Shown here: positions 3,141-43,850 of the stretch, in pieces
Layout: each line of letters begins with the position of its first letter
How positions within the stretch are numbered: position 1 is the first letter of the stretch
IMG/VR virus record: IMGVR_UViG_2706794697_000014
Direction: 5' to 3' (one strand)
Origin: a virus
Lineage: Duplodnaviria > Heunggongvirae > Uroviricota > Caudoviricetes
Length of the DNA: 45,417 bases
Program-made: the position numbers and the translations under genes
Notes under the pieces: generated by a model
Databases searched by the model: none
The model's input: only the letters and a program-made list of their open reading frames with translations
Told to the model about the DNA's origin: nothing

Positions 3141-3277
3141 GGGATGGGGCAGGTTTTTCCTCTTGCGCATGCAAGGGCGGCTCTGATAATGAACAGTAAT
3201 ATTTTACTGTTGAGCTTATGCTCACTGATCCTGCCGGGCAGGATGTTCAACGGTTCCAATATATCCTGCCCCTTCCG
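3141..3277 (+). ncRNA. candidate structured non-coding RNA upstream of the RT module (retron msr-msd-like or DRT-type ncRNA)
   Basis: 13-nt inverted repeats GGGATGGGGCAGG (3141-3153) and CCTGCCCCTTCC (3265-3276, 12/13 complementary) flank three internal hairpins: CTTGC-GCAT-GCAAG (3162-3175), AACAGTAA-TATT-TTACTGTT (3192-3211), perfect palindrome ATCCTGCCGGGCAGGAT (3228-3244); no ORF. Confidence 0.3.
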
Positions 3278-3296
3278 CTTTTAAAAAGGATCTTTT

Positions 3297-3848
3297 ATGC
3301 ATGACAATATTTGGTTTACATATAAAGCACGTATCCAAGCGCACCATCGACTAGAATGGCTTGAAAAACACTCTCAATTTATCCTCGTTTGGTATGCTAT
3401 ATTGAGTGCGGTACTTTCAATTGTAACGTTGCGATTTCCAAAGGTTCTAGGAGATAATACAGATGTCGTTGCGGCGATACTTTCAGTGGCTCTACTGGGT
3501 ATTTCTCTGATCGTATCTAACCTAGATTTTCGTGGTCGAGCAATAGCCATGAGAAGGAATTATATTGCACTACAGCGACTCTATTTTGACATTACCACCA
3601 GTCAACAGTTATCTCTTGAACAGAAAGAAAAATATTTTAATTTGCTCAATGAGGTTGAGAATCACCGTGACATAGATGATAAAATTTCAAGGGTAACTCA
3701 AGTTGGACTTAAGACGAGGATCCCCACACAAAAAGAAAAAATAATTGTTATTTTATGGATATTACTTCGAATATTTATTACTGCCGCACTTTATATACTC
3801 CCATTAATATATCTTTGGATTGACTATGACTGCAAGCAGAATTTTTAA
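3297..3848 (+). CDS. small multi-pass membrane protein, putative effector partner of the RT
   Basis: 183-aa ORF, AGGA RBS; hydrophobic segments FILVWYAILSAVLSIVTL, VVAAILSVALLGISLIVSNL, IIVILWILLRIFITAALYILPLIYLWI; AT-rich; overlaps RT start by 23 nt. Confidence 0.7.
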   Translation: MHDNIWFTYKARIQAHHRLEWLEKHSQFILVWYAILSAVLSIVTLRFPKVLGDNTDVVAAILSVALLGISLIVSNLDFRGRAIAMRRNYIALQRLYFDITTSQQLSLEQKEKYFNLLNEVENHRDIDDKISRVTQVGLKTRIPTQKEKIIVILWILLRIFITAALYILPLIYLWIDYDCKQNF

Positions 3849-5308: not shown

Positions 5309-5893
5309 TTACTCCATAACAGGGACCGCAGGCCACTCAATATCAGGTGCAGTTGATGTATCAACACGGTTCAGCAACACCCGATACTTCTTCCAGGCTT
5401 CCAGCAACGAGTTTTCTTCCTCCGTTGCGATCTCCAGATCTACAGCATCCTGAAGTGGCGCTATATGCTCACTGGCTACCTGCATCAGGCTGTTTTTTGT
5501 TTCTTCCGCCTCCCGGATCCGGAACAGTTTTTCTGCTTCCGTATCCTTCACCCAGGCTGTGCCGTTCCACTTCTGAAACTCCCCTTCCGGGGATAACCAG
5601 GTAACATTTTCCGGTAACGGACCGAGTTCAGAAATAAATAACGCGTCCCCTGACGCTACGTCATAAACCGTTTTACCCCGATGGTCTTCAACGAGATGCC
5701 ACGATGCCTCATCACTGTTGAAAACAGCCACAAAGCCAGCCGGAATATCTGGCGGTGCAATATAGGTACTGTTTGCTGGCAGACCTGTATGAGGCGGAAT
5801 ATATGCGTCACCTTCACCAATAAATTCATTAGTTCCGGTCAGCAGATTATAAATTTTTATGGTCCGTGGTTGTTCACTCATTCTGAATGCCAT
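5309..5893 (-). CDS. tfa: tail fibre assembly protein
   Basis: 194-aa product [18 protein letters not shown]...[10 protein letters not shown] closely matches lambda Tfa as recalled. Confidence 0.9.
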
Positions 5894-36362: not shown

Positions 36363-37012
36363 GCCGCCATCTCCCTGACCAGTTTTTCCGCCTGCTGGCG
36401 AACCTGCGCCAGAAACGCCTCACCACATGCCTCAAGTTCATCGCGCCCGATGTAGCTGATTGCCGGTCCCTTCCAGGTCTTGTCGAAAACAGCAATAGCA
36501 CCAGCGAAGAAAGCGCCTGTCGGCACCTGCTTCTCGTCCTTCGGGATAAACCAGGCAGGCAGTTCAAAACCAATACGCCCGCGAATAAAAGCAATATGAT
36601 CTGCATCTTCCGGCCACCACACTTCGCTGGTGGCAGCTTTGATCAGGAAAACATAGCGTCCGCCCTTATCACGCATGGCACTGGCATGTTTCATGATGTA
36701 ACGCATGCCGGTGATGTATTGCCCTTCATGCTGACTGGCGCGGCTGTACGGGGGATTACCAAAGGCAGCACCTTTAAGCTCCGCAAGACGTTCAGACCAG
36801 TCATGCGCCAGCGCGTTGTCTTCCGCAGTGTAATAAGCGGCACATTTGGCGTTATCACCATCAGTGAACAGATCCAGAACAAACGGGCCAAACAGGGTGT
36901 TAATTCCCCAGAAAATGTTATCCGGCGTGCGCCACTGATCGCCCACTTCCTTCAGTTCATGGGCTGGTTTGTTCCGCAGCTCCACCAGCGCCTGGCAATA
37001 TTTATTACTCAT
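36359..37012 (-). CDS. phage Dam-family DNA N6-adenine methyltransferase
   Basis: NPPY motif (AAFGNPPYS) in about 217-aa product starting MSNKYCQALVEL. Confidence 0.75.
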   Translation of the reverse strand: MSNKYCQALVELRNKPAHELKEVGDQWRTPDNIFWGINTLFGPFVLDLFTDGDNAKCAAYYTAEDNALAHDWSERLAELKGAAFGNPPYSRASQHEGQYITGMRYIMKHASAMRDKGGRYVFLIKAATSEVWWPEDADHIAFIRGRIGFELPAWFIPKDEKQVPTGAFFAGAIAVFDKTWKGPAISYIGRDELEACGEAFLAQVRQQAEKLVREMAA

Positions 37013-37500
37013 TAAGCCCCCACGTAATTCCCTGACAGATACCACTCTTCACCCGATGCAGCGCGCTTGCTGCTTTTCCGTAAGCACCGCTCACGACGCG
37101 CCAGAAAATTGTTTCGTTCTGGCTGGGAGTGGCTTTCACGGAATGCCGCCATCCACACCGTTGCAGCACGACGGTATAAGCCCCTGGACTCCAGTTCTTC
37201 CGCCTGGCGGGTCAGGCACAAAATCACCCGGGGATCGTTAGTGCCGACATAGAAATTGCGCACAGGTCTGGTTTCACGAACTGGTTGTGGTTCCGGCTCC
37301 TGCGCTCTCTCAGTCAGGCGTGGGAAATGTCTGCGTGTATCTCCTTCATAACGGTGAGCCACACGCCCACTCTGACGTAACTTGCTTGCTGACTGCAGAA
37401 CGCGCTGCCGTGAGTAACCTGCAAAAGCATCCGCAATGTCTCCGGAAGTACACCCCGGATGGGCTTCAATGAATTTCTGAACTTCATTCAAAAGACTCAT
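37012..37500 (-). CDS. hypothetical early protein
   Basis: about 162-aa ORF MSLLNEVQKFIEAHPGCTSGDIADAF..., overlaps neighbours by 1-4 nt in operon-like fashion. Confidence 0.45.
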   Translation of the reverse strand: MSLLNEVQKFIEAHPGCTSGDIADAFAGYSRQRVLQSASKLRQSGRVAHRYEGDTRRHFPRLTERAQEPEPQPVRETRPVRNFYVGTNDPRVILCLTRQAEELESRGLYRRAATVWMAAFRESHSQPERNNFLARRERCLRKSSKRAASGEEWYLSGNYVGA

Positions 37501-37502
37501 GA

Positions 37503-38321
37503 TCACCCCCTGAATCCTGCCGGGATCTGGCTGTAGTCCACGTTGTCGTAACTGGCTTTGAAGTACGGGTCCTCGCGTCTGGCTGCAGATACCGCAGGAA
37601 CTTCCCAGAATTCTTCGAAATGACGATCCGGACCAAAGAACGTGACAGCCTGTTTCACAAATTGTGTGCCGCTGTTACCCATCGCAGATACCCATCCCGC
37701 GTAGCGTTTCACACCTTCCAGCATGGTTTCGGGGTTTACTCCCTCATTCAAACGGGCTTTCCAGGCTTTGAAGGCTGCAGATTTTGAATTGCCACCAGCA
37801 CGTTTGGGATATGCCAGCCATGCCTGCTCAAACTCCGGAGAGTATTCCGGTCGGTTTGAACGAACTCGCACGGACTCATCAACTGATGCACCAACAGCTA
37901 TTGGTTCATTGACTGGTTCTTTGACTGGTTCAAAAGAGTGACTGGTTCTGGGTGAATCTCCTGCACTACCCCCTGGTGCAACTCCTGCACTACCTGGTGA
38001 ATTTGCTGCACCAGATAGTGAATTATTTGCACTACCCCCTAGTGAATCTCCTGCACCATCCAGATGAAGGAGATAGATATTACTTGAGTTACCTTTTTCA
38101 CCTTTCCGGGTGACTTTTTTTACCAGCCCGGACTCACAAAGGGCCGCAATATGATTCATCACAGAACGTTTGCTAATTTCGCACTGGTCAGCAATATGCT
38201 GGTAGCTGGGCCAGCACTCACCCTGATCGCTGGCATTATCAGCCAGCTTGATCAGAACCAGTTTTCGCAATGGATTACCCACTCGAATTTTCATCGCTTT
38301 AACCATCAGCTCCATACTCAT
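37503..38321 (-). CDS. replication initiation-like HTH protein containing internal iterons
   Basis: N-terminal HTH (LADNASDQGECWPSYQHIADQCEISKRSVMNHIAAL), low-complexity G/S/A/P linker encoded by tandem DNA repeats. Confidence 0.55.
   Translation of the reverse strand: MSMELMVKAMKIRVGNPLRKLVLIKLADNASDQGECWPSYQHIADQCEISKRSVMNHIAALCESGLVKKVTRKGEKGNSSNIYLLHLDGAGDSLGGSANNSLSGAANSPGSAGVAPGGSAGDSPRTSHSFEPVKEPVNEPIAVGASVDESVRVRSNRPEYSPEFEQAWLAYPKRAGGNSKSAAFKAWKARLNEGVNPETMLEGVKRYAGWVSAMGNSGTQFVKQAVTFFGPDRHFEEFWEVPAVSAARREDPYFKASYDNVDYSQIPAGFRG
37901..38065. repeat. tandem direct repeats (putative origin iterons) inside replication gene
   Basis: TGACTGGTTC x3 (37910, 37922, 37939) followed by five imperfect 21-24-bp repeats of GGTGAATCTCCTGCACTACC type. 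Confidence 0.45.
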
Positions 38322-38554: not shown

Positions 38555-39383
38555 GACGATGCCCTCCGCTGATATTCAGGAGACGGTGAATATGAAAATT
38601 AGCCTTATCCGCCAGACGAATACGTTCAGCTTGCAAGTTAAGAAGGGTTTCTACCAGAACCTGATGTGCCTGCGGATCCGAAAGAGTTACCTTGCGCAGA
38701 GCACGTAGTGCAGTTGTTACATAACTGAGTTTATGTAAGTCTTCATCATTCAGACGAGTGAGGGCTGGGACAGTAGCCATGATGGCAGCCTCCTTGATCG
38801 GTGAAATACTTCCACCACCGGAAACGCCAATTTCGCTGGTGGTGAACTGAACGGGGTTGGCGTAACCGGTGATCAAGGAAACCGGCGCATCTTTCGATGC
38901 CCCCGCCCAGCCCACCATAACTTTGATGTGAGCAAATGCGGACGATAAAAAAGACGCTGGCGCGTCATATATCGCCTTGATCAATTCCAGGACGCCAATC
39001 CCGGCACCCGCTTTATAAGGTGCCTGAACAGTGTAACGTCCCGGAATGGCAGAATCAATGTGCTGGTGGTCCTTCACACTCAACAAAATCACGCCTGAAT
39101 TTCCACAAAGGACTAAAGCACTCATGCGGGTAGTCTTTGCGAAGATAGATAACGCGCTGTGTTTCTGGCTCCCAACGAATAACATGAACATAAAGTCCTC
39201 TTCCGTCACGAAACCAGCGGTTAAGTTCCTGCACAACTCGCCCCCCACAGTCAGGTAAAGTTCTCTGTGGTTACTTACAGCCAGGTGATTTGGTAATCTG
39301 CATTCATGCCGTAACAACAGGTGTTCAGCGACGCTGACCACCAGCTGTTGCGACAAACGGTTATTTGCCGTTAAACTGTTCAT
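38547..39383 (-). CDS. hypothetical early protein
   Basis: 278-aa ORF in early-right operon; no motif I can name. Confidence 0.45.
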   Translation of the reverse strand: MNSLTANNRLSQQLVVSVAEHLLLRHECRLPNHLAVSNHRELYLTVGGELCRNLTAGFVTEEDFMFMLFVGSQKHSALSIFAKTTRMSALVLCGNSGVILLSVKDHQHIDSAIPGRYTVQAPYKAGAGIGVLELIKAIYDAPASFLSSAFAHIKVMVGWAGASKDAPVSLITGYANPVQFTTSEIGVSGGGSISPIKEAAIMATVPALTRLNDEDLHKLSYVTTALRALRKVTLSDPQAHQVLVETLLNLQAERIRLADKANFHIHRLLNISGGHRHA

Positions 39384-39943
39384 GCGTTAGTTTCTCCACA
39401 GACACAAAACGCCACGACGCCCGGAGCTGCACACTCGCGGGCGTCACTCTTTTCTGGAGCGCAAAAGATTTTGTAGACCAGTGCTGCATGCTCCTGGAGC
39501 TTCGAAATTGACAGATACAACTCATCATTAATTGCTGTCTGCTCGTGTGGCTCCACTACCCCATCTTCGATTGCCGAACGAATCTGCTTTGAGTAACTCC
39601 CGATCTGTTCGATGACTTCCAGCAGGCGCTGGTTTATATCGGCGTTCTCTACTTCCTCAATTTCAGGAAGCGATACAAACACCCCACCAGCAGACTGTGC
39701 GACAGCATCCGCAATGTAGTGAGTGCCAGCCGCGCGCTGTAAAATCATTGCCCATCCCAGCGGGAAAATCTGATCGCCATCTGCACGAAGGCGGTTGAAT
39801 AAAGCGTTCTCTGTTACATCCAGCCACTCAGCAGCTTCAGCGTAACCCCCCGGCAACGCCGCGATAGTTTTTCTGACAGCTTTCACGTACCACTCAGGCT
39901 GTTTTTCTACTTTCCAGTGATGCTTACCCACGGTTAGCCTCAT
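39380..39943 (-). CDS. putative early regulatory protein (CII/CP76-like position)
   Basis: 187-aa ORF immediately downstream of cro; weak resemblance to CP76-type CII regulators. Confidence 0.4.
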   Translation of the reverse strand: MRLTVGKHHWKVEKQPEWYVKAVRKTIAALPGGYAEAAEWLDVTENALFNRLRADGDQIFPLGWAMILQRAAGTHYIADAVAQSAGGVFVSLPEIEEVENADINQRLLEVIEQIGSYSKQIRSAIEDGVVEPHEQTAINDELYLSISKLQEHAALVYKIFCAPEKSDARECAAPGVVAFCVCGETNA

Positions 39944-39974
39944 CGTTCTGTGGTTAAAAATTGAAGGTGTTCTG

Positions 39975-40175
39975 TTAATCTTTCGGATAGATATCCGGTC
40001 TTAAGTCAGATTTCGTAATTGCACCTGACGTGCATTGCTCAAGTTTTTTAGCCAGCACAAAACTGGCTTTTTTATAACCATTGAAAACCAGCCGTAAGTA
40101 GCCTGGTGTTGAGCCAACTTTTCCGGCCAACTCACCCTGCTGTTCTTTGGTTAAAGAGTCCCAATACGCTTTCAT
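39975..40175 (-). CDS. cro: Cro-like HTH repressor
   Basis: 66-aa product MKAYWDSLTKEQQGELAGKVGSTPGYLRLVFNGYKKASFVLAKKLEQ...; divergent from cI across operator region. Confidence 0.7.
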   Translation of the reverse strand: MKAYWDSLTKEQQGELAGKVGSTPGYLRLVFNGYKKASFVLAKKLEQCTSGAITKSDLRPDIYPKD

Positions 40176-40179
40176 ACAA

Positions 40180-40248
40180 TATGTACCTCCGGTATACATA
40201 TTACATGATTGAGATGAACCTTCAAGATACTTGTACCTTATCGGTACA
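40180..40248. promoter_or_regulatory. OR-like operator region with two 19-bp palindromic sites
   Basis: ATGTACC-TCCGG-TATACAT (40180-40198) and perfect TTGTACC-TTATC-GGTACAA (40230-40248) between cro and cI. Confidence 0.5.
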
Positions 40249-40265
40249 AAGGTTTTAATTTCTTT

Positions 40266-40940
40266 ATGAAAACAGTCCATGACATCCGGCGGTCTAACGC
40301 CAGAAAACTGAGAGATGGTGTTGGCGGGAATTCTTCCTTTGCCACCATGATTGATCGCGAGCCAACCCAGACCAGCAGGTTTATGGGAGATGGTGCAACT
40401 AAAAATATCGGTGACAGCATGGCACGGCACATCGAAAAATGTTTCGACCTGCCTGTCGGATGGCTTGATCAAGAACACCAGACAACGAACATCACAAAAA
40501 AACCTGACGTTTCAATCACTAACAAACAAATAACGTTAGTCCCTGTCATATCATGGGTACAGGCCGGAGCATGGAAAGAAGTTGGCTATTCTGAGGTTGA
40601 TTTGAGCACAGCAGAAACTTATCCCTGCCCTGTACCCTGTGGCGAAATGACTTATATCTTGCGGGTGATTGGTGATTCAATGATTGATGAGTACCGCCCG
40701 GGAGACATGATTTTTGTTGATCCTGAAGTCCCTGCCTGCCACGGTGACGACGTTATTGCATTGATGCACGATACAGGCGAAACCACCTTCAAGCGGTTGA
40801 TAGAAGATGGAACACAGCGTTATCTCAAAGCATTAAACCCAAACTGGCCTGAGCCTTACATTAAGATTAACGGTAATTGCTCTATAATTGGTACAGTGAT
40901 TTTCTCAGGAAAACCAAGAAGATACATAATAAAGGCCTAA
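40266..40940 (+). CDS. cI: CI-like repressor (S24 LexA-type peptidase family)
   Basis: C-terminal S24 domain (VIGDSMIDEYRPGDMIFVD, TFKRL) preceded by DNA-binding N-terminus. Confidence 0.8.
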   Translation: MKTVHDIRRSNARKLRDGVGGNSSFATMIDREPTQTSRFMGDGATKNIGDSMARHIEKCFDLPVGWLDQEHQTTNITKKPDVSITNKQITLVPVISWVQAGAWKEVGYSEVDLSTAETYPCPVPCGEMTYILRVIGDSMIDEYRPGDMIFVDPEVPACHGDDVIALMHDTGETTFKRLIEDGTQRYLKALNPNWPEPYIKINGNCSIIGTVIFSGKPRRYIIKA

Positions 40941-40950
40941 TCAATATTTA

Positions 40951-40974
40951 TAACCTGCTTCGGCAGGTTTTTTT
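40951..40974 (+). terminator. intrinsic terminator after cI
   Basis: AACCTGC-TTCG-GCAGGTT followed by T7. Confidence 0.65.
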
Positions 40975-40977
40975 ATA

Positions 40978-41005
40978 CTTGACAATGTACCTTTGGGATA
41001 CATAA
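40978..41005 (+). promoter_or_regulatory. PL-like promoter overlapped by third operator
   Basis: TTGACA (40978-40983), 16-nt spacer, CATAAT (41000-41005); operator ATGTACC-TTTGG-GATACAT at 40984-41002. Confidence 0.5.
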
Positions 41006-41445
41006 TGTATCTAAAAGAAACACAGCACAGGCAAGATTAAACAAAATTTGGTTGTAACACGGCGTATGGCACATGCGTCGTTAGCGGTCTGGGGACGTTA
41101 AAGGGGACAATCCACTCCTTGCTCGGGCAAACAAACCAGGTAGCCGGAATGTGCAAGTCAATGATGATGCTGATAAGACGCCTAACCAGCGTGGCGATTC
41201 GGTTTGACGCCTGGGAAGAGACCAGGGTGCAACGATGAGGACATTTATGGAACCGCGACAAAGTGTGGTGCCGTAACTGGCTAAGTGCTCTCAGCGTTGT
41301 GGTGAATGCGCAGGCTGATGCGCGAAAGACATTGCAGCTAATGCGGAAAAGAGCTGTTCGGCGGGGCAATTAAACGCCCGTGAGAGTCTGAAATAACCGC
41401 AAGCCGGAGATCAGCACCGGTCACCACAACAGCCACTGCTTTGGC

Positions 41446-41580
41446 GGTACCAGTTTGTACACTTGCTTCCGGCTGGTACCGCTCTTTTTACAAAACAGAG
41501 AAGAGCATCACCGGACGACGGGCTCATAACCAAATCCATCCGGGCGGCTGCCACCGCAGGTGTTCTTCTCTGTTTTGTGG
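41446..41580 (+). promoter_or_regulatory. two large inverted repeats in the early-left leader
   Basis: GCGGTACCAG/CTGGTACCGC 10-bp perfect inverted repeat (41446-41484) and ACAAAACAGAGAAGA...TCTTCTCTGTTTTGT 15-bp perfect inverted repeat (about 41490-41578). Confidence 0.4.
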
Positions 41581-41626
41581 AGAAACCAACCGACCTTGCA
41601 GGGTCGATATGATTAGGAGCAGCAAA

Positions 41627-41989
41627 ATGGCTAGCGAACGCAGTACTGATGTGCAGGCATTTATTGGGGAGCTGGACGGCGGCGTATTTGAAACCAAAAT
41701 CGGCGCAGTTCTCAGTGAAGTCGCTTCCGGTGTGATGAACACGAAAACCAAAGGTAAGGTCTCACTCAACCTGGAAATCGAACCATTTGATGAGAACCGT
41801 GTGAAAATCAAACACAAACTCTCATATGTTCGCCCGACTAACCGCGGGAAAATTTCCGAAGAAGACACCACCGAAACGCCGATGTATGTCAATCGCGGTG
41901 GTCGCCTGACTATTCTGCAGGAAGACCAGGGACAATTACTGACTCTTGCCGGTGAACCTGACGGAAAACTCCGCGCAGCAGGTCATTAA
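41627..41989 (+). CDS. YfdP-like prophage protein
   Basis: 120-aa ORF with AGGAG RBS; position directly upstream of yfdQ-like gene as in CPS-53. Confidence 0.5.
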   Translation: MASERSTDVQAFIGELDGGVFETKIGAVLSEVASGVMNTKTKGKVSLNLEIEPFDENRVKIKHKLSYVRPTNRGKISEEDTTETPMYVNRGGRLTILQEDQGQLLTLAGEPDGKLRAAGH

Positions 41990-42054: not shown

Positions 42055-42879
42055 ATGTCTCAGAACTTAGACGCAACCGCAATTAATCAAATCCATGCCC
42101 TTATTTCTGCTCAGGGTGTTAATGAAATTATCAGTAAGATTGGTGCCGATGCTGTGGCATTGCCTGAGAATTTCCGCATTCATGATCTGGAAAAATTAAA
42201 TTTAAATCGTTTCCGTTTCCGTGGTGCGCTTTCCACTGCCAGCATCGATGACTTTACTCGTTATTCTAAAGATCTTGCAGATGAAGGCACCCGCTGCTTT
42301 ATCGATGCTGATAATATGCGTGCCGTCAGTGTTCTTAACCTGGGTACTATTGATGAACCAGGTCACGCAGATAACACCGCCACTCTCAAACTGAAAAAGA
42401 CAGCTCCGTTCTCTGCTCTGTTGTCTGTTAATGGCGAGCGTAACTCCCAGAAGTCACTGGCAGAATGGATTGAAGACTGGGCCGACTACCTTGTGGGCTT
42501 TGATGCTAATGGTGACGCCATTCAGGCAACCAAAGCGGCTGCGGCGATCCGTAAAATCACAATTGAAGCGAACCAGACCGCTGATTTTGAAGATAATGAC
42601 TTCAGCGGCAAACGCTCCCTGATGGAGTCTGTCGAAGCGAAGACCAAAGACATTATGCCAGTGGCATTTGAATTTAAATGCGTTCCGTTTGAAGGTCTGA
42701 AAGAACGTCCGTTTAAATTACGCCTCAGCATTATCACTGGCGATCGTCCTGTACTGGTTCTGCGCATTATTCAGCTGGAAGCGGTACAGGAAGAAATGGC
42801 TAACGAATTTCGTGATCTGCTTGTTGAGAAATTCAAAGACAGCAAAGTAGAAACCTTTATTGGTACTTTCACCGCCTGA
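42055..42879 (+). CDS. yfdQ: YfdQ-family (DUF2303) prophage protein
   Basis: 274-aa [24 protein letters not shown]... recalled as YfdQ-like; GTGAGGA RBS. Confidence 0.6.
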
Positions 42880-43016
42880 TTTCATTACTGCAAATGCCCC
42901 TGCGGGGGCATTTACGGAAGCGATAATTTTAACTATTGCCGCCCCTATAAAGAACCATTAAACAATAACGTGACGTAGCTATTGATAGTAAATGAAGCAC
43001 TTGCAAAATAATTGCA

Positions 43017-43850
43017 TTGCGTATATATACACACATGTGTTGTATTACAGCGATAATGGTAAAGCAAATGATTAACTCTGAAGCAATTGAGCAACTAATG
43101 TGGCTATGGTCCTTATTTGACATTAAATTCTTATCTATTCTTGCCGCTGCCTTCACTATATATTTTGGCGTGCAAAAAATATCAAAAAAGGTGACAGTGT
43201 CGTATTCAGCAAATGCAAGTAGAATATATGACATGCATATATCAACCATAATCCTGAATAATAAAAGAGATAATGCAATTGCTATATCTTCAATCAATAT
43301 GGAGGTTGAAGGTAAAGGGATACTACAAGTTATTAAATTTGACTCCCCTCTTCTTTTAAAGAACTATGATTCTTTAAAAGTTGAACCACCAAAATTTAGC
43401 AGCCTTTACAATAATGATGGCGTAGTTAAGTTAGATATTTCTGATAAGTTTCATTTTTATATAATCACGACATCTGGAGATGAAATTAAATGTATTTCTG
43501 AAAATAAATATGTAGCACCAAACATGGAAAACAAAATAGCTACAGACATAAGAAAATTTAATGGCATTGTCTTAACAAACAGAATGTCTTATATTTTTTT
43601 CTATGCAAATGACAACGGAGAGAAATACTGCATAATAGATGTTTCATTGTTCATAAATGGTGACAACCCATTTCATTTTAATTTTTTAAAAGAAGATGAA
43701 TTAAGAGATTTTTCTAGCATCCTTATTAGTTACGGATATCACCAACAGTTTAAAAGTTATGCATTGTTTAAAATAGACAACCATCTTGCTCCTTCTTTGG
43801 TTTTAAATAAATCAATGATAGAAAATAATATTATTGAAATGAATAAGTAA
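43017..43850 (+). CDS. AT-rich hypothetical protein with N-terminal membrane anchor
   Basis: ORF with hydrophobic segment LMWLWSLFDIKFLSILAAAFTIYF then about 220-aa Asn/Lys/Ile-rich domain; start uncertain (track start is TTG; ATG candidates at MVKQ/MINSE). Confidence 0.55.
   Translation: MRIYTHMCCITAIMVKQMINSEAIEQLMWLWSLFDIKFLSILAAAFTIYFGVQKISKKVTVSYSANASRIYDMHISTIILNNKRDNAIAISSINMEVEGKGILQVIKFDSPLLLKNYDSLKVEPPKFSSLYNNDGVVKLDISDKFHFYIITTSGDEIKCISENKYVAPNMENKIATDIRKFNGIVLTNRMSYIFFYANDNGEKYCIIDVSLFINGDNPFHFNFLKEDELRDFSSILISYGYHQQFKSYALFKIDNHLAPSLVLNKSMIENNIIEMNK

Follow-up and report, generated by a model that had tools for sequence, protein, structure and literature searches.

A predicted cI/cro immunity switch of the e14/SfV type with five candidate operators in a Caudoviricetes genome

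The e14 element of Escherichia coli K-12, with its regulators ymfK (cohE) and ymfT (croE), falls into the same immunity group as phages SfV, SfIV, cdtI and Ayreon and the Stx2c phages, the CI proteins of which are 99-100% identical. Parts of this type of region have been annotated before. The GenBank record of SfV carries a "putative operator region" that corresponds exactly to positions 40181-40249 (69 bp) of the DNA considered here, the record of phage Ayreon marks the PL promoter, and the intrinsic terminator of cI is annotated in both records. YmfK has been listed among SOS-sensitive repressors, and co-variation with sulA and recN has been seen for e14 genes. According to the paper on SfIV, phages SfII, SfV and SfIV are without N. 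Operator mapping, binding, footprinting and mutational data for this repressor family were not found in the literature searched, a search to which the original SfV and e14 genome papers did not belong.

Here we analysed the immunity region of a viral sequence of 45,417 bp; this whole stretch is called the window throughout. Judged by its sequence, this is a cI/cro switch as found in prophages of the e14/SfV/cdtI type, and its palindromes are almost certainly binding sites of the repressor. The switch belongs to a very common type of E. coli prophage that includes the e14 element of K-12, and among 5,426 complete genomes 564 carried at least 80% of a 1.5 kb stretch. This is an ordinary region, most of it annotated before, and the finding of operators in it is already known. 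A preliminary description made from the letters of the window had read the palindromes as the CI and Cro operators of an immunity region, which was essentially right: the core of that reading is strongly supported by comparison with relatives, yet the architecture it gave was incomplete. What is added here is a precise map of five sites together with promoter assignments, by which the K-12 regulators YmfK/CohE and YmfT/CroE become directly testable. The operators themselves are of little importance, and the RNA in the leader of the PL promoter could matter more.

The two regulatory genes, cro (40175-39975, minus strand) and cI (40266-40940, plus strand), are divergent and separated by a 90-bp gap. 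The cI gene encodes a repressor of 224 aa of the YmfK/CohE type, with an N-terminal helix-turn-helix and a C-terminal S24 self-cleaving domain. The protein is identical to K-12 YmfK (CohE) at 222 of 224 residues and is 99.6% identical to the cI product of SfV and cdtI. Its C-terminal part matched Peptidase_S24 (E = 1.5e-26) and the C-terminal domain of lambda CI (E = 2e-9, with the GDSM and FKRL motifs aligned), and the features of self-cleavage are present as Ala100-Gly101, Ser138 and Lys176. The helix-turn-helix was not detected by Pfam itself, and a profile of the N-terminal part matched solved phage repressor domains (PDB 5d50, E = 3e-5; 7nkv, E = 0.002). The cro-like gene (66 aa, YmfT/CroE type, ymfT in RefSeq) is the first gene of the PR operon. 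Its product gave weak Pfam matches to YdaS and HTH_3 and matched the PDB 'Cro' entries 8co2/8c7k at E = 0.01. The recognition helix of Cro, GYLRLVF, is conserved in 20 loci, and both this helix and that of CI, PTQTSRF, are kept in the loci in which the operator half-sites are conserved. The cII gene of the window is of the phage-186 CP76 type. Downstream of cI lies its intrinsic terminator (40952-40976, plus strand; 7-bp stem, UUCG loop, U7; -10.3 kcal/mol, z = -4.8), the stem of which is kept in relatives through compensatory changes.

Sites were scored as 7-5-7 palindromes of 19 bp, WTGTACC-N5-GGTACAW, and all mismatches given below are counted against this model. Three 19-bp palindromes had been proposed in the preliminary description; all of them exist, each one base further along than given there. 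The perfect palindrome occupies 40231-40249; at 40230-40248 there is no palindrome, with 6 of 7 positions mismatched. Matches with at most two mismatches occur in the entire window at 40181-40199, 40231-40249 and 40985-41003 alone. In first-order Markov shuffles such matches numbered 0.37 on average and 2 at most, and none of the 300 shuffles reached three. When three mismatches were allowed, eight matches were found window-wide against 4.3 expected, which is not significant, and thus the outlying matches at 5356, 6133, 37161 and 44022 were taken as chance.

Relatives provided a second line of evidence. The footprint set consisted of 21 diverged prophage loci whose cI products are 73-88% identical, with a median DNA identity of 71% over the first 270 nt of cI. 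Across these 21 loci the OR region is colinear; a 1-bp shift occurs in only three of them. A motif search across related prophages, suggested in the preliminary description as a check, bore out the proposed sites: in the 21 loci the half-sites are kept (conservation 0.80-0.99), and the 5 bp between them are free to vary (0.47-0.54 in operators C and OL1, where the spacer is unconstrained). Since all 21 relatives share one specificity, the footprint carries no co-variation between protein and operator.

Operator A (OR1-like; 40181-40199, ATGTACCTCCGGTATACAT, ATGTACC-TCCGG-TATACAT) has 2 mismatches and is present at the equivalent position in 21 of 21 diverged loci with 0-2 mismatches. It adjoins the -10 hexamer of the predicted PR promoter and spans the PR start, predicted near 40191, and the ribosome-binding site of cro (GGAGG, minus strand). 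PR is placed at 40198-40225 on the minus strand, with a -35 of TTGAAG (40225-40220), a 16-bp spacer and a -10 of TAATAT (40203-40198). These hexamers were read from the sequence; they are weak, agreeing with consensus at 8 of 12 positions and lying under the threshold of the promoter scan. In relatives a -10-like hexamer (TAATAT, CATAAT or TAGAAT) and the TTG of the -35 are kept.

Operator C (OR3-like; 40231-40249, TTGTACCTTATCGGTACAA, TTGTACC-TTATC-GGTACAA) is the perfect palindrome and is kept in all relatives, with halves conserved at 0.81-0.90 and an unconstrained spacer at 0.47. Its left half is also the -35 (TTGTAC, 40231-40236) of a PRM-like cI promoter at 40231-40266 on the plus strand, which continues with a 17-bp spacer and a -10 of TTTAAT (40254-40259). 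The cI gene begins at 40266, 16 nt past the end of operator C, and its closeness to that site had been pointed out before. Transcription from this promoter is placed at the A of the ATG, so that the mRNA would be leaderless. Across 22 loci the -10 (TnTAAT) is kept 6-7 nt upstream of the ATG; the bases between the two lack conservation (0.45) and contain no Shine-Dalgarno sequence. The earlier suggestion of a leaderless cI message is confirmed by published RNA-seq of K-12, which maps a class I transcription start of ymfK to the beginning of the gene, with a leader length of 0.

Beyond cI, the PL-like promoter (40979-41006, plus strand) is composed of TTGACA at 40979-40984, a 16-bp spacer and CATAAT at 41001-41006, the hexamers named in the preliminary description as flanking the third site. 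It agrees with consensus at 11 of 12 positions, and both hexamers are invariant across 22 loci; the PL start itself is predicted near 41013. Operator OL1 (40985-41003, ATGTACCTTTGGGATACAT, ATGTACC-TTTGG-GATACAT) has 1 mismatch and fills the PL spacer. Its halves are conserved at 0.94-0.99 and its unconstrained spacer at 0.54.

The preliminary description had placed two of its sites at OR and the third at PL. Those sites stand, and the footprint in the 21 loci adds two that had been missed, at 40214-40232 and 41005-41023, leading to a layout of three OR and two OL sites as in other lambdoid phages. The first of these, operator B (OR2-like and weak; ATGAACC-TTCAA-GATACTT), is recognised by conservation only. 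Its centre lies 43 bp upstream of the cI start, and it overlaps operator C by 2 bp, with the two centres 17 bp apart. The second, OL2 (ATGTATC-TAAAA-GAAACAC), is weak in the window, covers the last bases of the PL -10 as well as the predicted start, and has its centre 20 bp from that of OL1.

Both added sites are poor matches, with 3 mismatches in B and 4 in OL2; the spacer of B holds the PR -35, the left half of OL2 shares its first bases with the end of the PL -10, and the right half of OL2 is missing in about six relatives. These features would fit an arrangement in which only A, C and OL1 are operators (two at OR and one at OL), with B and OL2 conserved through promoter overlap or descent, and the embedded PR -35 could be the source of part of the conservation of B. 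However, the left half of B, ATGAACC, lies in the PR spacer, where there is little promoter constraint, yet it is conserved at 0.90 with the same single deviation everywhere. The right half, upstream of the PR -35, is likewise kept, and the full set of deviations (ATGAACC ... GRTACTT) recurs in 19 of 21 relatives. Similarly, the left half of OL2, which reads ATGTACC in relatives, reaches 5 bp past the PL -10 and is near-invariant (0.97), whereas conservation drops to 0.56 over the following 20 bp; the right half, GAAACA, is variable (0.69). Weighing these points, we consider it unlikely that A, C and OL1 are the only operators.

Far less probable is that the palindromes act as RNA or DNA hairpins, that is as terminators or attenuators, and not as protein sites. 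A scan did flag 40231-40249, followed by AGGTTTTAAT, as terminator-like on the plus strand, but the stem there is just 7 bp with three G-C pairs. The half-sites of A, B, OL1 and OL2 are asymmetric (for example GATACAT and TATACAT) and show no compensation on the other arm in relatives, which argues against a hairpin, since a selected hairpin would show compensation. Furthermore, relative to the transcripts in question the sites are placed at the start or before it. The LexA box is a 16-bp palindrome, CTGT-N8-ACAG, i.e. TGT-N8-ACA. That the sites are host LexA (SOS) boxes placing the prophage under direct LexA control is the least credible reading of all: e14 genes are SOS-induced and the sites contain TGTA...TACA, but they read TGTACC-N5-GGTACA, i.e. 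TGT-N11-ACA with no C before the TGT, the literature places the e14 division inhibitor outside LexA control, and the prophage has a LexA-like self-cleaving repressor of its own.

Taken together, the sequence features and their conservation, the homologies of the protein domains and the leaderless start of the K-12 message point to a lambda-like switch with two repressors, five operators and immunity of the e14/SfV type, a reading that we regard as very probable on sequence grounds. In such a switch CI (YmfK/CohE) and Cro (YmfT/CroE) would be produced from divergent promoters, and dimers of each would most likely bind 19-bp sites with the pattern ATGTACC-N5-GGTACAT. Operator A would cover the edge of the PR -10 and the start, B the PR -35, and C the -35 and spacer of the cI promoter, while the leftward early promoter PL would be covered by OL1 and OL2 over its spacer, its -10 and its start. 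With CI bound at A, B, OL1 and OL2, both PR and PL would be kept off in a lysogen, and CI at B may stimulate the cI promoter from its position upstream of the cI start. That promoter would in turn be shut off when C is filled, whether by Cro or by CI in excess. The cI message would be translated without a leader, and after DNA damage RecA-stimulated self-cleavage of CI at Ala100-Gly101 would release PR and PL. The binder at each site, the order of filling, any cooperativity and the activation of the cI promoter are given here as we infer them.

Transcription from the PL-like promoter first yields a structured RNA, conserved and covarying, at 41060-41300 (plus strand). The core of this leader RNA occupies 41060-41227, with a long closing stem reaching to about 41300, and it scored 133 bits with the R1 model. 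Covariation was found in four helices. Homologues occur in P1, P7, D6 and phiV10-like phages and in at least 120 viral contigs, and the element was also found 2.3 kb into the P1 ban operon and beside tRNA genes. In the window it is present as a single copy, with no second copy downstream of PR. No match to Rfam 15 was obtained in 40900-41700 at E-values up to 5, and when five diverged copies of the RNA were searched at E up to 1 only flanking tRNAs scored. Weak matches to STnc370 and STnc50 at 40942-41015 on the minus strand are merely the cI terminator read backwards. A tRNA-like reading of the leader was likewise dropped, as ARAGORN found nothing even at 80% thresholds. The fold of the whole leader is not more stable than that of shuffled sequences (z = -0.48), the structure being seen by comparative analysis only. 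RNAalifold proposed a long-range pairing of an invariant 5' segment with an invariant part of the core, a pairing that is invisible to covariation; the supported alternative is a local 5' hairpin.

A terminator-like hairpin (41443-41490, plus strand; 13-bp stem, 15-nt loop, then CUCUUUUU; -21.2 kcal/mol, z = -5.35) also lies between PL and the first protein gene of the early-left operon; a simple scan missed it because its loop is longer than 8 nt. That first gene is a member of the YfdP family (41627-41989, plus strand; an ORF named yfdP in RefSeq) and is followed by a DUF2303/YfdQ gene (42055-42879; DUF2303, E = 8e-93). Viral contigs were also surveyed for terminators that follow the RNA, but near-identical contexts and a spurious 66-aa frame confounded the outcome.

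The arrangement resembles putL and putR of phage HK022 in that an N-less lambdoid phage has a structured RNA soon after PL and before a terminator. It differs from them in size and distribution: the HK022 put RNAs are about 70 nt with two stem-loops and follow both PL and PR, whereas the RNA described here measures about 170-245 nt, has at least four helices and lacks a copy downstream of PR. Identity with put RNA was rejected, since the only blastn matches between the immunity region of HK022 and the leaders of the window, SfV and Atlantibacter were chance 10-15-mers. The RNA at 41060-41300 belongs to an uncatalogued family that is widespread, covarying and named by no database, and it stands ahead of a terminator in a phage group without N. 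That it might act in cis on RNA polymerase in a put-like manner, leading to readthrough of the terminator at 41443-41490, is a speculative and improbable proposal; if true, it would represent a second, unrelated class of phage antiterminator RNA in N-less lambdoid phages.

Within the e14/SfV group the OR and OL regions are near-identical to those of the window, with the same five sites and a leaderless cI mRNA; the K-12 e14 region differs from the window at 5 of 109 positions. OL2 is more degenerate in the window (ATGTATC...GAAACAC) than in e14 or SfV (ATGTACC...GAAACAA). Past OL2 the leaders diverge: e14, SfV and most relatives have a conserved element of about 60 nt, whereas the window, cdtI, Ayreon and the Stx2c phages have the R1-type structured RNA instead. 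As the repressors are more than 99% identical and the operator sequences the same, homoimmunity is predicted for e14, SfV, SfIV, cdtI and the Stx2c phages.

With lambda the region shares the divergent cI and cro genes, three OR sites (over PR, near -42/-43 of the cI promoter, and over the cI promoter), a leaderless cI mRNA, a homologous S24 self-cleaving C-terminal domain, and OL over PL beyond cI. In lambda OR2 sits at -42. The operators themselves differ in sequence and in length, being 17 bp in lambda and 19 bp in a 7-5-7 arrangement here, and the OR sites are spaced by 24 and 23 bp in lambda compared with 33 and 17 bp here. Additionally, OL has three sites in lambda and two here, and in the window cII is of the phage-186 CP76 type and Cro is YdaS-like and all-helical. 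An N gene and a nut site are absent here, with no N-like ORF between PL and YfdP, so the switch would work in a lambda-like way but early antitermination would not. A counterpart in layout is the immunity region of phage 933W, which Koudelka et al. reportedly described in 2004 as having three OR and two OL operators; its repressor specificity and operator sequence are probably unrelated, and the arrangement of three plus two sites is shared.

Five predicted operators, three (A, B and C) between cro and cI and two (OL1 and OL2) over the promoter PL, were identified in the immunity region. The cI repressor ORF (40266-40940, + strand) encodes a 224-aa protein with a Peptidase_S24 match (E 1.5e-26), whose C-terminal part is homologous to the lambda CI C-terminal domain (E 2e-9) and whose self-cleavage motifs are in place: Ala-Gly (100-101), GDSM (Ser138) and FKRL (Lys176). 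Pfam detected no helix-turn-helix in CI; a profile of 17 N-terminal domains, searched against solved phage repressor DNA-binding domains, matched 5d50 (E 3e-5) and 7nkv, 'Phage repressor protein CI' (E 0.002). The divergent cro-like ORF (40175-39975, - strand; 66 aa) encodes a YdaS/Cro-type helix-turn-helix protein and is followed by a gene in the cII position (39380-39943, - strand) that belongs to the phage-186 CP76 family rather than to lambda CII. cI is followed by an intrinsic terminator (40952-40976), a PL-like promoter, approximately 620 nt in which no ORF is credible, and the YfdP and YfdQ (DUF2303) genes.

The motif WTGTACC-N5-GGTACAW was searched over the 45,417-bp window. Only three matches had two or fewer mismatches, all also visible on reading 39400-41800: site A (40181-40199, ATGTACC TCCGG TATACAT), site C (40231-40249, TTGTACC TTATC GGTACAA, a perfect palindrome) and OL1 (40985-41003, ATGTACC TTTGG GATACAT). 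First-order Markov shuffles (n=300) gave a mean of 0.37 such matches and none reached three (0/300), while at three mismatches the count in the window, 8 against 4.3 expected, was within chance. All three 7-5-7 palindromes named in the preliminary description are therefore present, although each of its coordinates was one base too low; at 40230-40248, where it had placed the perfect palindrome, six of seven arm positions mismatch.

A phylogenetic footprint added site B (40214-40232, ATGAACC TTCAA GATACTT, three mismatches) and OL2 (41005-41023), which begins one base past OL1. The footprint was drawn from 21 diverged loci (cI protein identity 73-88%; median DNA identity 71% over the first 270 nt), including Hafnia phage yong2, Edwardsiella phage EPP-1 and prophages of Atlantibacter, Pseudocitrobacter, Leclercia, Klebsiella, Phytobacter, Enterobacter, Pantoea, Trabulsiella, Kluyvera, Limnobaculum, Rahnella, Edwardsiella and other hosts. 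These loci are colinear from cro start to cI start, with a 1-bp shift in three, and in a whole-locus scan the motif fell at the same five cI-relative positions in almost all of them, with very few matches elsewhere. Retention of the sites in homologous immunity regions, a check proposed at the outset, is thus borne out. The arms of site C are 81-90% conserved against 47% for its spacer; at OL, conservation is 94-100% in the half-sites and the two PL hexamers, only 54% in the 5-bp centre of OL1, and 56% in the 20 bp past OL2. Fixed arms around a free centre are, as read from the alignment, the pattern expected of a dimeric DNA-binding protein. Both predicted recognition helices, PTQTSRF in CI and GYLRLVF in Cro, hardly vary among these loci, so a single specificity is common to all and protein-DNA co-variation is uninformative here. 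Overall, the earlier reading of an immunity region with CI and Cro operators was right in essence, given the strong footprint and the published mapping of a start site. Its three sites, two at OR and one at PL, belong to a predicted set of five.

The sites are interleaved with predicted promoters. PL (TTGACA 40979-84, 16 bp, CATAAT 41001-06, + strand) matches consensus at 11 of 12 positions, with the hexamers exactly as first described around OL1; its -10 combines the last bases of OL1 and the first of OL2 with a single A between them, and the two operators overlap the PL spacer, -10 and predicted start. The putative PR (TTGAAG 40225-20, 16 bp, TAATAT 40203-198, - strand) retains TAATAT, CATAAT or TAGAAT at its -10 position in relatives. 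Site A overlaps the PR -10 edge, the predicted PR start and the cro ribosome-binding site, and site B overlaps the PR -35, whose TTG is carried in the spacer of B. The putative cI promoter (TTGTAC 40231-36, the left arm of C; 17 bp; TTTAAT 40254-59, + strand) is overlapped by site C at its -35 and spacer.

With such overlap, the switch could have only three operators, B and OL2 being kept for promoter reasons alone. The right arm of OL2 (GAAACA) is weak and absent in about six loci; its left arm is ATGTACC almost everywhere and ATGTATC in the window. The deviant arms of B (ATGAACC ... GRTACTT) are retained in 19 of 21 relatives, and the left arm sits within the PR spacer, whose sequence would not be kept by promoter function alone. 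We consider the three-site switch unlikely. The palindromes might instead act as hairpins or terminators, a reading we reject because asymmetric arms lack compensation, and in view of their positions relative to transcript starts. LexA boxes are likewise rejected, since the spacing is TGT-N11-ACA here against TGT-N8-ACA and the e14 inhibitor is reported not to be LexA-controlled.

In lambda, PRM is activated by CI bound at OR2 (centred at -42) and repressed from OR3, the site that Cro prefers, and RecA-stimulated Ala-Gly cleavage inactivates CI. By analogy, CI dimers at A, B, OL1 and OL2 would silence PR and PL. CI at B, centred 43 bp ahead of the cI start, may activate the cI promoter, which could be shut off through C by Cro or by excess CI, and the prophage would be induced through SOS-triggered CI cleavage. 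The centre-to-centre spacings of A-B (33 bp, about three helical turns) and OL1-OL2 (20 bp, about two turns) would permit CI to bind cooperatively via a lambda-like C-terminal domain; that of B-C (17 bp) does not obviously do so.

The cI-promoter -10 sits 6 nt (7 in three loci) ahead of the ATG in 22 of 22 sequences, with no Shine-Dalgarno in any of the 22 between the two and the intervening bases unconserved (45%). Differential RNA-seq of E. coli K-12 reported only five leaderless mRNAs, among them e14 ymfK, whose class I start is the first base of the gene (leader length 0; PMC4681348). The K-12 allele shares the identical -10 and spacing, and so the suggestion of a leaderless cI mRNA is experimentally confirmed for that allele.

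The PL leader was examined because PL output is what the OL operators control. This 620-nt gap is mosaic, and part of it matches unannotated DNA of unrelated phages. A conserved structured RNA (R1 type; 41060-41300, + strand) begins about 47 nt past the predicted PL start. At least 120 IMG/VR contigs contain its invariant 19-mer, GGTAGCCGGAATGTGCAAG (41139-41157). In an alignment of 42 representatives (<90% identity), four helices were supported with 87% of cells paired; double-change cells numbered 85 against 24.9 +/- 5.6 in shuffles (0/500), and the covariation score was 0.277 against 0.129, with slid controls at most 0.079. One base pair is AU in 23 sequences, GC in 19 and broken in none. 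For this RNA, neither the window nor five diverged copies gave an Rfam match, and no tRNA was found in it. A covariance model found a single copy in the window (41060-41227, 133 bits). Of the 21 diverged loci it picked out only those of Ayreon, Phytobacter and Klebsiella spallanzanii, where PL precedes the RNA in every case.

Other copies lie in P1 (L003, 2515-2689) and in compared loci L032 (1202-1370), L014 (3669-3818) and L012 (3753-3907), as well as in P7, D6 and SJ46. The P1 copy directly follows trnI and precedes ban in the C1-controlled ban operon; the D6 copy also directly follows a tRNA, and in phiV10/SPN1S-type phages the RNA is directly ahead of tRNA-Arg(UCU). Of 120 viral contigs, 42-53 encode, about 120-155 nt ahead of the RNA and on its strand, a cI-type repressor from another family; most of these contigs share the downstream genes of the window and hence are not fully independent. 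Because the RNA also occurs well inside the P1 ban operon and next to tRNA and DicF-like genes, it seems no less likely to be a processed, trans-acting early RNA than a cis-acting antiterminator.

Between PL with its structured RNA and the first protein gene stands a strong terminator-like hairpin (41443-41490, + strand; 13-bp stem, then CUCUUUUU; -21.2 kcal/mol, z -5.4), which early-left transcription must pass in a phage group reported to be without N. A stem-closed segment (41296-41430, + strand; 10-bp stem GUUGUGGUGA...UCACCACAAC, z -2.1) takes the place of tRNA-Arg in relatives. It is 95-97% identical to unannotated DNA of Klebsiella/Salmonella phage IME207 and P1-like phage JL22, and its first ~40 nt recur at ~92% identity in many lytic phages of Klebsiella and Erwinia. 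The GUUGUGG of its stem doubles as the 3' strand of the long closing stem of the upstream RNA, making the two pairings mutually exclusive.

Most relatives, e14 and SfV included, carry a different conserved ~60-nt element directly after OL2: SfV (L001) at 2626-2690, L006 at 3260-3325, loci L009-L015, L019 and L023, and K-12 e14 just downstream of ymfK. Its layout is CAGGCAGGACGCCCACGAAGTAGCCGCC-[stem]-GGCRTATGAA-[stem]-GATGATTCG, with one covarying hairpin (compensatory changes at three positions) and complete divergence beyond the element, which may be a 5'-leader RNA element. Neither it nor the R1-type RNA has sequence similarity to the HK022 antiterminator RNA put.

Elsewhere in the window, the PR operon carries, after the cII-like gene, matches at Rfam gathering level to C4 antisense RNA (38835-38922, - strand, 82 bits) and isrK (38947-39023, - strand, 64 bits), suggesting a second, RNA-based control point of the P1 immI or P4-like kind. 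Both lie inside a 278-aa ORF (39383-38547) annotated 'immunity region' in SfV and Phage_ASH by Pfam. The Ash match (residues 117-210, ~38754-39035) spans both RNA genes, so the ORF, or the Pfam family, may in part represent translation of an RNA locus. The same operon encodes a PerC-family transcriptional activator homologue (37012-37506, - strand) downstream of a DnaD-like replication gene. The YfdQ gene is followed by an AT-rich stretch (42929-43850) with a 277-aa ORF of unusual composition (43017-43850), a candidate accessory ('moron') gene acquired by insertion. Far from the immunity region, IS009 RNA gives a full-length Rfam match (5352-5550, - strand, 225 bits).

At 39900-41700 the window is 98% identical to cdtI, Ayreon and Stx2c phages and, the different leader excepted, 96% identical to SfV and SfIV; RefSeq names the genes ymfK and ymfT. 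The ends of the SfV GenBank 'putative operator region' map exactly to 40181 and 40249, and an Ayreon-annotated promoter to 40979-41006. The same switch is found in the K-12 cryptic prophage e14 (YmfK 222/224 identical; 5 differences in the 109 bp preceding the cI start), and at least 80% of 40150-41650 is found in 564 of 5,426 complete E. coli genomes. In the literature YmfK/CohE is a CI-like, SOS-sensitive repressor and YmfT is CroE, and e14 genes fall in one expression module with sulA and recN. Of the features described, only the structured RNA of the PL leader may be new. The region itself is the e14/SfV immunity region, which is common in E. coli and has been annotated before, and its predicted switch is, by analogy, mechanistically a standard lambdoid switch without N.
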